Made by a program: the position numbers and the translations under genes. Positions 33,849 to 42,315 of a stretch of DNA of 64,000 nt are shown here, in pieces. The DNA is taken from the NCBI GenBank assembly GCA_039028615.1, contig JBCCHT010000045.1, positions 1 through 64,000 on the forward strand. The letters are read 5' to 3'. How positions within the stretch are numbered: the first letter of the stretch is position 1; each line of letters begins with the position of its first letter. This stretch comes from Myxococcota bacterium (lineage in GTDB: Bacteria > Myxococcota_A > Polyangia > Nannocystales > Nannocystaceae). The notes below the pieces were generated by a model. It was not told the DNA's origin. It saw nothing but the letters and a program-made list of their open reading frames with translations, and did no database searches.

Positions 33849-34132
33849 GGCCGGACCATACCTTCGCGACCTGCGCCGGCCAATAGCCCGAGCGTCGGCC
33901 GGTCCCACGTGCGCCCACGATCGTCGTCGAACGGCGGCCACGATGCCACGCGCCGTGGTGCGCCGAGCGAGAGGAGTCGCATGCCGCCGACCCGCGTTCC
34001 TTTGCACGCGAGCGCCGTGCTCATCGATCACTCGATCGACGTCGACGATGACCGCGCCGCGGGGTCGGAGTAAGTGCATGTCGCCTTCCGTCGGAGATTG
34101 ACCTATTCGCGGCCGTGGTAGGCTGGACAAAG

Positions 34133-36172
34133 ATGGTTGGGTCGCGAGCGCTTGGATTATTCGTGCTTGGGTTGGCTCTCGGAGCCTGTAGAGAAGACAC
34201 CACCGCGGCGACCGGAAGCGGTGGCTCGGGGACGGAGGGCGAGCCCACCGCGGGCGGCTCCGCGGACGAGGGGCTCGACTCCACGGCCGAGGGCGGAGCA
34301 ACCGAAGGCGACGACGTGGGCGGGGCCTGTGTCAGCGATGCCGATTGCGAAGACGACGACCCGTGTCGGCCGCAAAGCTGCAACGCGGGCACCTGCGAGG
34401 CCGGTGAGTTCCAGGTCTCGCTGGAGTGTCGGCCGCAGATCGAGGTCGAGTTCCCGCCGCGTGCGGCCACCCTGCAGGCCGACTCGCCCACCGTCACCGT
34501 CACGGGGCGCGTGCACAGCCCGGCCGGGCCCATCGAGTTCCTCAGCCTCAACGGCGAAGACGTCACGGTCGACGACGACGGCAGCTTCAGCCACGACGTG
34601 GTGGCCCAGACCGGCGGCAATACCCTGGTCTTCGAGACCGCCGACTCGGAGAAGACGCCGCGCAAGCGCGTGCAGTCGTTTCTGTGGTCGACCAACTTCC
34701 GGCTCCCCACCACCGCGCCCGAGGGCATCGCGGACGACGGCTTGGCGCTCTACCTGTCGCAGGAGACCCTCGACGACCAAGACCGCACGCCGCCCATCGA
34801 CGACGTCGCTTCGCTGCTGAGCCTGGCGGTGGAGAACTTCGACATCAATTCCTTCATCGACCCCACCACGTCGATCGCCAGCTCGGCCGGCTACGACGTG
34901 TACCTCACCAGCATCGACTACGAGTCCACGTCGCTGGCGATCAACGCGATCGACGGAGGCATGGAGGTCGTGGCGCGGCTCAACGACATCACGGGCGATC
35001 TCGACTTCGACTGCACCAACGCGGCGTGCTTCTTCGCGGGGGGCGACGGCAGTGGAGGCTTGTCCGTCAACTACATCGAGGTGCGCTCCGACTTGATCGT
35101 CGAGGTCGGCCCCGACAACCAGCTCGAGGTCACGCCCACCGGGACATCCACCAACGTCAACTCGCTCAACATCTGGTCCAACAACCTATGGACCAACTTC
35201 CTGCTGGCGATCATCGAGCCCTTCATCATCGGCGGGGTGGTCAACGACCTCGAGAACGAGCTCACCTCGCAGATCAACGGCTTGCTCGGGCCCGCGCTTT
35301 CCGAGGCGTTCGGGGGCCTTGCGCCCAACACCAACCTCAGCTTCCCGAACCTCGGCGATCCCAAGGCGCCGATCGACGTGCAGCTGGTGGCCGACTTCCT
35401 CGACACCGATTTCCACGATGGCGGGGCGCCGCCCGATCCCTCGCCGCCGCAGGGGGGCATGATCCTCATGCGGGGCGGGGGCTATGCCGTCACTCCCGTC
35501 GCGCCGCACAAGAACCTCGGCATTCCCGACCGAGCGGGCTGTGGTGACGGTACCAGCGGGCTCGACCTGCCGCGCGAGGCCCTGCTGGAGCTCGGCCTCG
35601 GCGACGACATGCTCAACCAGCTGCTCCACGGGGCGTGGACGGGCGGGTTGCTCGAGTTCGATCTGCCGCCCGAGCTGCTGGGCGAAGGCGGGCTGGTCAG
35701 CGACCTCGACATCCACATCAGCGGCATGCTCTCGCCCACGGCCTCCGACTGCTATCCCGACGGGCAGATCCGGGTGCACCTGGGCGACATCCAGATCGAA
35801 GGCGGACTCACCCTCGGCGTGCTGCCGATGACCTTCGTGGCCTACACCAGCTTGGTGGCGGGCCTGGAGCTGTCACCGACCAAGAGCGGGGTGGGCATCT
35901 CGATCACCGAGGTCGAGATGGTCGACACCGAGCTGACGGTCGGCGAAGACGAAGCGCTCGAGCAGGAAGCCCTGGTGGCGGCCACGCTCGAGGGGCAGCT
36001 GGTCAGCGCGCTCGTCGATGCCATCGGCGGTGGTGGGTTGGGGGGCATCGACCTGCCGCCCATCGACCTCAGTGCGACGCTGGGTCTACCGCCGGGCACC
36101 GCTGCGCTCACCGTGGTCGCCGAAGAAGTGCACCGCGAGCCGGGCATCACCGTGATCAGCGGCCGCCTGTGA
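34133..36172 (+). CDS. Lipoprotein with Ig-like domain and putative BPI/LBP (TULIP)-like C-terminal region
   Basis: Lipobox ALGAC; Cys-rich motif; Ig-like VTVTGRV..LNG..GGNTL; GDDMLNQLLHGAW segment. Confidence 0.6.
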   Translation: MVGSRALGLFVLGLALGACREDTTAATGSGGSGTEGEPTAGGSADEGLDSTAEGGATEGDDVGGACVSDADCEDDDPCRPQSCNAGTCEAGEFQVSLECRPQIEVEFPPRAATLQADSPTVTVTGRVHSPAGPIEFLSLNGEDVTVDDDGSFSHDVVAQTGGNTLVFETADSEKTPRKRVQSFLWSTNFRLPTTAPEGIADDGLALYLSQETLDDQDRTPPIDDVASLLSLAVENFDINSFIDPTTSIASSAGYDVYLTSIDYESTSLAINAIDGGMEVVARLNDITGDLDFDCTNAACFFAGGDGSGGLSVNYIEVRSDLIVEVGPDNQLEVTPTGTSTNVNSLNIWSNNLWTNFLLAIIEPFIIGGVVNDLENELTSQINGLLGPALSEAFGGLAPNTNLSFPNLGDPKAPIDVQLVADFLDTDFHDGGAPPDPSPPQGGMILMRGGGYAVTPVAPHKNLGIPDRAGCGDGTSGLDLPREALLELGLGDDMLNQLLHGAWTGGLLEFDLPPELLGEGGLVSDLDIHISGMLSPTASDCYPDGQIRVHLGDIQIEGGLTLGVLPMTFVAYTSLVAGLELSPTKSGVGISITEVEMVDTELTVGEDEALEQEALVAATLEGQLVSALVDAIGGGGLGGIDLPPIDLSATLGLPPGTAALTVVAEEVHREPGITVISGRL

Positions 36173-36197
36173 GGCGGCCGGAACCCCCCGCGCGACA

Positions 36198-36686
36198 CTA
36201 GGGCGCGGGGAGTTCTTCGAGGCGCTGCACGACGCACTGGCCGGGGCGATCCAGCGGAGCCCCGTCGGGACCGATGGGCGCGGATTCCTGGGGGTCCGGC
36301 GGCGTCGCCTCCTGCGGGATGCAGCCCACCCGCACTGTTTTGCCCGCCGCGGCCTCGAGCGCTTCGTGAGTGACGGCCTCGGATGCCCCGAGGACGGTCT
36401 CTTCGCCGTCGGCGTGGTGCAGGGTGAACTCCACCCCCATGTAGGCCTCCATGCTCTTGGTCTGAGGCAGAGGCGTGTACTCGAGCGTGCCCTCGTGCTC
36501 GACGCTGCCGTCGGCGGGCTCGGTCTCGTCGGAGCCATCGGGCAGGGGCCACTGTCGCCCCGACCCTTCGTCACCCGGGGGGGTGGTGCCCGGGGTCGTC
36601 GGTGTCGGCTCGGCGCAGCCGGTCCATGCCACTCCGGCGGCGCTCAGGGTGAACACGAAGGGAAGACAGCGGCACAACGATTTCAT
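36198..36686 (-). CDS. Small hypothetical lipoprotein
   Basis: Lipobox WTGC; globular C-terminus. Confidence 0.65.
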   Translation of the reverse strand: MKSLCRCLPFVFTLSAAGVAWTGCAEPTPTTPGTTPPGDEGSGRQWPLPDGSDETEPADGSVEHEGTLEYTPLPQTKSMEAYMGVEFTLHHADGEETVLGASEAVTHEALEAAAGKTVRVGCIPQEATPPDPQESAPIGPDGAPLDRPGQCVVQRLEELPAP

Positions 36687-36846
36687 CGGCGCCGCGATCG
36701 TAGCCAAATGCGTGAGCAAGCGGGGGCCCACGATGAGCCAGTGGCCACGACGCCCGTTTCGGAGGCAGCGGTTGTAGCCAGGGCACGGGTGTCAGGCCGC
36801 GGACCTAAGTGCCCGTGGTGACGTCATTTTCCCTCCAGGTCGAAGA

Positions 36847-36862
36847 TGGCAGCCCACTTGCT
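36847..36862 (+). promoter_or_regulatory. Sigma54 (-24/-12) promoter
   Basis: TGGCAGCCCACTTGCT matches TGGCAC-N5-TTGCW with the exact GG-N10-GC spacing. Confidence 0.65.
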
Positions 36863-36872
36863 CTTATGGCGG

Positions 36873-37042
36873 GCGCACACACACTCCAAATCACGAGCGC
36901 CGCGAATGGTCGCGGTGGTCGAGATTCCACGAGTGATGCGAGGCCGGGGGCGGCTTCGCACCGTGATCCTCGTGGGGCCATGACATCGGGGGCGTTGTCG
37001 TGGCTCCGCGAGGACCACCCCTTTTCAGGGGTGGGCCTTTTT

Positions 37043-37043
<1 letters not shown>
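36873..37043 (+). ncRNA. Candidate sigma54-dependent small RNA (~170 nt, four stem-loops)
   Basis: Promoter and terminator both face + while both flanking genes are on -. Stems at 36889-36926, 36927-36975, 36976-37005 and 37011-37038. Wobble pairs are G-U on the + strand. Confidence 0.6.
37011..37043 (+). terminator. Intrinsic terminator, + strand
   Basis: AGGACCACCCCT-tttc-AGGGGTGGGCCT followed by a T-run. Confidence 0.75.
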
Positions 37044-38350
<1,307 letters not shown>

Positions 38351-38550
38351 GGCAGGGTCCTCGAGCGAGACGCTGGGTAGACCCAACGTACCTGCGGCGG
38401 GGGCGGTCTGTTCCCGGACGGGCCGGGGGCCGGAGATCCACCGGCCTAGGCATCGTTTGTCGACCAGATCGAGCCCCCTCGCAAGACCAGGCCTGCTCGC
38501 GGGCTGCGCGGCGCGGCGCGGGCGCGTCCATGTTATATCTGCCGCCGAAC

Positions 38551-42206: not shown

Positions 42207-42235
42207 GCGCCCGACCCCTAGCGCTCGCGCGCTTC

Positions 42236-42272
42236 GAGAACGTCGCCCGGCTTCGGCCCGGCGGCGTTCTTT
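42236..42272 (+). terminator. Probable intrinsic terminator with C(UUCG)G loop
   Basis: GAGAACGTCGCC-c-GGC-ttcg-GCC-c-GGCGGCGTTCTT downstream of the GSDH gene. Confidence 0.55.
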
Positions 42273-42315
42273 CGTTGGTGGGCAAAGGAACCCGAGCCGG
42301 GCTCGTGCGTTACCA

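Follow-up and report, generated by a model that had tools for sequence, protein, structure and literature searches.

A predicted sigma54-type small RNA gene, probably an orphan, in a variable slot behind htrA of a marine myxobacterium

In a 64,000-nucleotide stretch of DNA from a marine myxobacterium (hereafter ‘the window’), we see a sigma54-type promoter, a stable body of three hairpins and an intrinsic terminator following one another on the plus strand; together they form a single-copy unit of ~170 nt, located in a variable slot behind an htrA-like gene. A stand-alone, plus-strand unit of sigma54 type had been proposed from the letters alone (the ‘sequence-only reading’), and promoter-type motif, fold and dedicated terminator are all present at the locus. 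The unit has the general attributes of a sigma54-dependent, trans-encoded small RNA (sRNA): its own -24/-12 promoter match, an intergenic position, an intrinsic terminator and no credible open reading frame. We put the probability that this predicted sRNA gene is real at roughly 0.65; the fuller account that we prefer, in which a young sRNA, specific to its lineage and under sigma54, acts in trans with no need of Hfq, we would place somewhat short of even odds. Judged on its sequence, the unit is unusually clean and sRNA-like, and is probably an orphan rather than a form of the known myxobacterial RNA Pxr.

The source is a metagenome-derived genome of 12.3 Mb (68% GC, 97% complete), whose origin in the Myxococcota is indicated by proteins encoded nearby (MYXO-CTERM; Atlas taxa), with the RNA located on a 98-kb contig (C45). 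Judging by size, GC content and habitat, it probably falls within the Nannocystis-type family; the sequencing runs listed as containing the sequence include no RNA run. As first described, the gap is flanked by two minus-strand genes (intergenic 36687–37042; Table 1), and there is no plus-strand gene at the locus to feed the terminator. A contig from the probable source run (probably the same data as the assembly, and so not independent of it) spans 35500–37529 with a single differing letter, at 37167 and outside the unit, indicating that no local assembly error underlies the sequence.

Table 1. Coordinates of the predicted RNA unit and its surroundings (window positions)
Feature	Position	Strand	Basis or remark
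Gene for a 685-aa protein of Myxococcota, bordering on the left the slot of variable content with lipoprotein gene and RNA	34115–36172	+	
Lipoprotein-like gene, without known family, divergent from the RNA	36198–36686 (/36731)	-	ORF calls, homology search
Palindrome TGACGTCA with an inverted repeat, ahead of the promoter	36783–36829	.	Candidate activator or lipoprotein-promoter site
Sigma54 (-24/-12) promoter match, GG-N10-GC	36847–36862	+	Motif counts, position weight matrix (PWM)
Predicted start (36873) and largely unpaired CA-rich leader	36873–36881	+	Start inferred from sigma54 spacing
Hairpin H1; core 36889–36926, equal to SL1 of the sequence-only reading	36882–36935	+	Ensemble fold
Hairpin H2, 10 bp, G-run tetraloop; GGGGGCG at 36946–36952	36937–36960	+	Ensemble fold
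Hairpin H3, 19 bp plus weak 2-bp tip, G-run loop; GGGGGCG at 36988–36994	36967–37014	+	Ensemble fold
Intrinsic terminator, 8-bp core 37015–37034, T6 37038–37043	37015–37043	+	Fold
HtrA/DegP-like protease gene, convergent with the RNA	37043–38386	-	ORF calls, homology

The promoter element noted in the sequence-only reading is present and scores like genuine sites. Counted over the whole genome, the strict form of the motif (TGGCA-N6-TTGCW) occurs 32 times against 12.6 expected, a count that alone proves little since a control motif with a spacer of 4 likewise reaches 32. Looking instead at position (on crude gene calls that leave 15% intergenic), 25 of the 32 spacer-6 motifs are intergenic and 15 have a start codon no more than 150 nt away, where the nine other spacers give 3–7 and 0–2, respectively; the motif at this spacing is strongly intergenic, in the manner of true promoters. 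Simple arithmetic on the spacer counts leads us to expect about one in five of the intergenic strict motifs by chance. A PWM built from 23 other sigma54 sites of the genome gives the window promoter a score of 21.6, which falls among the scores of its own training sites (14.5–29.1, scored in-sample) and is reached by 1 of 52 coding controls. The locus contains no sigma70-type promoter match. Judged by sequence motifs, the genome encodes one RpoN-box protein and 26–32 enhancer-binding proteins (26 GAFTGA proteins), with no gene of the GAFTGA type found on the 98-kb contig.

On either side of the promoter there are two further elements. Upstream, the TGACGTCA palindrome has 130 copies genome-wide (both strands) and precedes 0/23 other sigma54 sites; it may belong to regulation of the lipoprotein gene rather than to the RNA. 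The same palindrome (window 36818–36829) is also found upstream of a lipoprotein homologue in a related genome (L072, G071). Downstream, the CA-rich leader was correctly recognised as such and is followed by an anti-SD-like CUCC word (36884–36887). CA-rich predicted 5′ ends like that of the window RNA also open sigma54 mRNAs in three relatives (L122, L124 and L125; G006, G022 and G071), and the leader may therefore not be a seed.

The plus strand of the unit (36873–37045) folds at -103.8 kcal/mol (z -8.29), with 0/200 shuffles as good, and the minus strand at -86.3 kcal/mol (z -5.14). That plus-strand transcription is favoured by G-U wobbles, an argument made from the letters alone, agrees both with this difference and with the five G-U pairs seen on the plus strand. 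When all 3,795 windows of 172 nt that end in at least five T were ranked against GC, and the best 45 z-scored, the window RNA tied for fourth to fifth among those 45, a ranking that favours it because the length of the screen was taken from it; it is outranked by one long inverted repeat and by a repeated element that appears in two copies. A GG-N10-GC match of any kind accompanies only 2 of the 30 top-folding windows listed.

Within this fold, the four back-to-back hairpins of the sequence-only reading (SL1, SL2, SL3 and terminator) each form when folded singly (-21.7, -29.7, -18.1 and -18.5 kcal/mol) but do not coexist in the full-length RNA, where their combined fold reaches -91.6 kcal/mol, 12 above the minimum. 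The outer pairing of SL2 has a probability of ~0 from 10 to 65 °C, its stem being displaced as H3 extends to 19 bp; over the same range, the predicted fold shows no RNA-thermometer behaviour. The loops of the three hairpins read AUGG, GGGG and GGGG, and the basal 5 bp of H1 cover most of the CUCC word. The terminator, with its T-run, holds up on the plus strand only, though the stem drawn at 37011–37038 contracts to the 8-bp core; the final T of the run overlaps the htrA stop codon. As the SL1/SL2/SL3 arrangement is the minimum only for prefixes of 103, 110 and 133 nt, it is at most a folding intermediate, and may arise co-transcriptionally; in that nascent fold, nothing pairs with the CUCC word, and the stem of the terminator is able to reach the U-run.

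Searches for homologues of the RNA, including the search of the syntenic region that the sequence-only reading had suggested, drew a blank both at the htrA site and elsewhere. We found none with blastn in 60 relatives or in 400 phylum genomes, none with a one-sequence covariance model (R1) in 72 family genomes (10 searched deeper), and no match to the model of the window RNA in 89 htrA loci (80 metagenome, 9 genome) or to the RNA in plasmid and phage records. Exact patterns (59 GTDB-contig and 18 viral-contig loci) and phylum blastn hits, when rescored, gave partial hairpins only (best 17.7 bits), and none of the 30 loci fetched and folded from among 139 strict sigma54 sites in five same-genus genomes resembles the window RNA. 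The sensitivity of these searches is limited by reliance on a single-sequence model, by scoring of the top 38–150 candidates per genome only, and by the distance of the closest relatives, just 68–80% identical in HtrA. It follows that there is no covariation on which the window RNA could draw; by the measure of conservation in relatives, which the sequence-only reading itself adopted, the claim of a conserved regulator is weakened.

Several apparent leads were rejected along the way. Weak model matches in four genomes (G005, G007, G089 and G071) turned out on inspection to be coding DNA or tandem repeats, and a promoter-plus-ACACAC pattern found in 6 other genomes marks mRNA starts in every case. 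The double G-tip pattern is not a homologue signal, occurring in 15 of 400 class genomes as compared with 22 for a reversed control; the best R1 score in that search, 13.9 bits, lies away from any pattern site.

The most serious challenge to our reading is that there is no separate RNA, the hairpins belonging either to the minus-strand htrA mRNA, as its 3′ untranslated region, or to a two-way terminator by which the inserted genes are insulated, with the sigma54 motif a product of chance. The unit begins right at the htrA stop codon, its minus strand also folds well, the block is without conservation, and stacked long hairpins close other transcription units in this genome. Saying this, the U-run and the better fold are both on the plus strand, the promoter match has a score typical of real sites and is positioned directly ahead of the folded block, and close relatives terminate htrA without any such hairpin block; we consider this explanation unlikely, if worthy of attention.

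Turning to known families, the window RNA belongs to none in Rfam, as had been supposed, with nothing near cut-off at the locus or elsewhere in the window (best score at the locus 21.5 bits against a cut-off of 50). The sequence-only reading had suggested an analogy with Pxr, an RNA that blocks fruiting-body development in Myxococcus, is processed to long and short forms, and comprises three stem-loops with a C-rich first stem-loop region, encoded directly downstream of the NtrC-like pxrR/pxrK pair. In the accessible portions of the relevant reports, Pxr is ~108 nt in length, sits behind its activator gene pxrR and is confined to the Cystobacterineae (PMC5684412, PMC5568312, PMC10217877, PMC8538405, PMC11928866); a C-rich segment is evident in the probe quoted in PMC5568312. 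As far as those sources extend, the two RNAs have in common a myxobacterial host without Hfq, an intergenic location, a predicted sigma54 promoter and several stem-loops (PMC5684412, PMC5568312, 10.1101/2025.09.11.675593). They differ in length (~170 versus ~108 nt), in their G-rich as opposed to C-rich tips or segments, and in their neighbours: htrA and a lipoprotein-like gene for the window RNA, its own activator pxrR for Pxr. The Pxr model (RF01812) finds no match at the locus. With model, length and adjacent activator all failing, the proposed analogy does not stand beyond promoter type; in that respect the window RNA may operate as Pxr does, but it is not a member of the Pxr family. Elsewhere in the genome, the best score for the Pxr model is 26.9 bits against a cut-off of 80 (C22:186043–186147 (+); L111), a full-length but weak match among hairpins at the end of a gene, lacking an activator gene beside it and probably due to chance. 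No sRNA from a Nannocystis-type family appears in the literature searched, whose reach mostly stops short of subscription papers, and in the accessible parts of that literature the sRNAs described come from the Myxococcus branch of the myxobacteria only.

Two other types of regulatory RNA merit comparison. The CsrB/RsmZ sponges are, like the window RNA, multi-hairpin RNAs with a terminator, and the host genome encodes CsrA; the RNA was rejected as a CsrA sponge, having one GGA and no ANGGA. The CsrA gene itself (C44:13342–13491 (-); L437) lies behind an NtrC-like gene, with CsrA found in 63/73 family genomes; the ORF that follows it we take to resemble FliW, which points to protein antagonism of CsrA. 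GlmY of Enterobacteriaceae, for its part, is described in the available text of PMC4152352 as a sigma54-transcribed, highly structured RNA of 184 nt that acts as a decoy for the look-alike GlmZ, and neither the GlmY nor the GlmZ model of Rfam matches the window RNA.

Screening the 32 sigma54 promoter matches for terminators brought to light another RNA, on contig C7, which is better supported than the window RNA. It lies at C7:93800–94080 (+), convergent with a TraB-like OmpA gene, and contains two copies of a 16-bp hairpin with the loop ...UUUGGGGGCG, followed by a U-run (C7:93840–94075). The same RNA, likewise convergent with a TraB-like OmpA gene, is found in 7 other genomes, namely 5/5 of the same genus (relatives’ loci include L168 1501–1780 and L093 5800–6080) plus G017 and G013, and in 0/149 sampled class genomes, a set without a positive control. 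Over 14 units of the hairpin, 224/224 cells are paired and 4 pairs are changed on both sides (0/500 shuffles), a statistic overstated because the rows are related; the loop GGGGGCG is invariant. Rfam provides no match for the C7 RNA. Its sigma54 match is only partly kept, and a sigma70-like TTGC-17/18-CASGAT is kept in 6/6 genus loci. A weaker third copy (L217 3647–3723 (-); G017:C144; 35.9 bits) takes the form of a terminator-like hairpin behind an Asp-rich gene; with its tip matching the C7 loop, it is possibly a member derived from a 3′ end.

The C7 RNA, with its covarying hairpin and invariant loop, raises the question of whether the window RNA mimics it under sigma54 induction, or is its diverged paralogue, titrating a partner (protein or RNA) common to both in the way that GlmY acts for GlmZ. 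The window RNA alone of 3,795 windows carries GGGGGCG at two hairpin tips, and look-alikes of the 5′ words of the C7 unit occur within it in the same order (2 chain matches against 0.43 expected; block score exceeded by 28/2,500 windows), the chain patterns having been drawn up after both RNAs had been seen. A model of the C7 family (R2), however, gives H3 just 13.6 bits (E 0.15), ranking it behind an unrelated hairpin of the window, as compared with 70–90 bits for members; a profile HMM of C7 ranks the window RNA 3,042 of 3,527, and its local alignment to C7 is exceeded by 52–382 of 1,500 background windows across six scoring schemes. Moreover, intergenic hairpins with G5 tips are common in the genome (198, versus 150 with C5 tips) and single GGGGGCG tips (22) are no commoner than those of control words (21–29). 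A family link is only hinted at by the sequences (p ~0.01–0.25, one test negative), and we regard the mimic or paralogue as quite unlikely. GlmY, also sigma54-type, structured and of similar size, supplies with GlmZ the functional analogy for such a link, but those two are clearly homologous and conserved together with GlrK/GlrR, whereas the likeness of the window RNA to C7 is marginal and comes with no linked activator. Going one step further, an undescribed class of G-run-tipped hairpin RNAs might be envisaged, the C7 RNA being constitutive and the window RNA a recently born mimic, inducible through sigma54, that competes for the C7 partner (a protein or a C-rich RNA) by titration; this is a long shot, though if true, GlmY/GlmZ logic would have evolved independently in an Hfq-less predator. 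Within the window, the top R2 match (17.4 bits) is a hairpin with a short U-run at 42214–42281 (+), located behind a glucose/sorbosone-dehydrogenase-like gene and looking like an ordinary terminator.

Two exclusive folds would also permit a cis-acting antisense switch, whereby sigma54 transcription collides with htrA and the choice of fold decides between termination and antisense read-through into htrA. The unit converges on htrA with zero gap, and nucleotides 37011–37013 have two possible partners, one within the basal part of H3 and the other at 37036–37038 beside the U-run, being freed in the nascent fold and not in the final one. Against such a switch, the alternative fold lies 12 kcal/mol higher, with an equilibrium probability of ~0 that is unaffected by temperature, no ligand-binding family is matched, and the arrangement is missing behind htrA in the relatives examined; we find it very doubtful.

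What lies behind htrA varies. No such RNA is present in 29 related htrA loci or in 80 metagenome loci; more distant relatives (G011, G006, L229 and L230) have hslO close behind htrA (tblastn), and within the genus the 685-aa gene and a variable cargo intervene. In G003, that cargo is PtuA/PtuB, a Septu-like system (PADLOC); three other close relatives (G002, L226 and L227) have look-alike ORFs there, and G005 has other genes. The slot (L130 5884–7819, L129 10855–12801, L226 and L227) is a cargo hotspot, which in the window is occupied by the RNA together with the lipoprotein gene. Homologues of the lipoprotein occur in 18/72 family genomes, and the idea that the RNA travels with this gene was rejected, the block being absent at 20/20 homologue loci having upstream DNA. 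Taken together, the lack of a homologue, the variable slot and the RNA-less lipoprotein homologues suggest that the unit arose, or was acquired, not long ago.

Were the unit left over from a palindromic repeat or a small mobile element that entered the slot alongside the lipoprotein gene, without a selected RNA function, this would sit well with the differing cargo that close relatives hold between the 685-aa gene and htrA. The window RNA is nevertheless single-copy in 12.3 Mb (on which ground a REP/MITE-type repeat was also dismissed), has an ordinary GC content (65% versus 68% for the genome), is unmatched in plasmid and phage records, and accompanies none of the 20 lipoprotein-homologue loci; a remnant is accordingly most improbable. 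Least credible of all is a short mRNA for a 25-residue peptide, whose open frame would start with the AUG of the H1 loop and close at 36981–36983, given that no SD-like word precedes the start codon, which is at the tip of a stable hairpin, that a longer version (45 aa) begins within the promoter, 27 nt ahead of the predicted transcript start, and that GC3 is 0.70 compared with ~0.85–0.9 in real genes.

Under the preferred reading, of a young sigma54 sRNA acting in trans, an enhancer-binding protein encoded elsewhere in the genome would switch the RNA on in response to some signal. Hfq was not found in the genome (97% complete), and the RNA would be expected to act without it. Given a real sRNA gene, base pairing in trans with mRNAs would be the most likely mode; we rank it first because Hfq-free pairing near SD sites is reported, in the accessible part of 10.1101/2025.09.11.675593, for both Pxr and MXnc1 in M. 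xanthus. With few bases left unpaired, the exposed ‘handles’ would be the CA-rich 5′ leader with its CUCC word and the two G-run tips, the CUCC word being free in the predicted nascent fold and mostly paired in the final one, while the long stems might serve as protection against nucleases. Target scans over 9,146 crude gene calls, run without a shuffled control, produced no standout mRNA (best 9-mer 3 versus 1 genes).

Were this reading correct, the wiring of an enhancer-binding protein to an sRNA would have arisen more than once in myxobacteria, and the window would have caught an sRNA gene soon after its birth, in a slot that elsewhere holds defence genes. The window RNA, an orphan whose host is apparently uncultured, does not in itself open a question; of the two RNAs, that on C7 is easier to pursue. 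The genome contains other strongly folding elements besides. An intergenic block at C58:17625–17800 (-) (z -8.5), closing with two long hairpins, both with CUGGGCGGG tips, and then a U-run, is by its predicted fold another candidate sRNA or 3′ end. A very long inverted repeat at C28:83030–83202 (+) (z -18), and two near-identical, long rod-like elements at C9:260845–261016 (+) and C3:130628–130800 (-) (z -11 and -10), are probably the ends of mobile elements.
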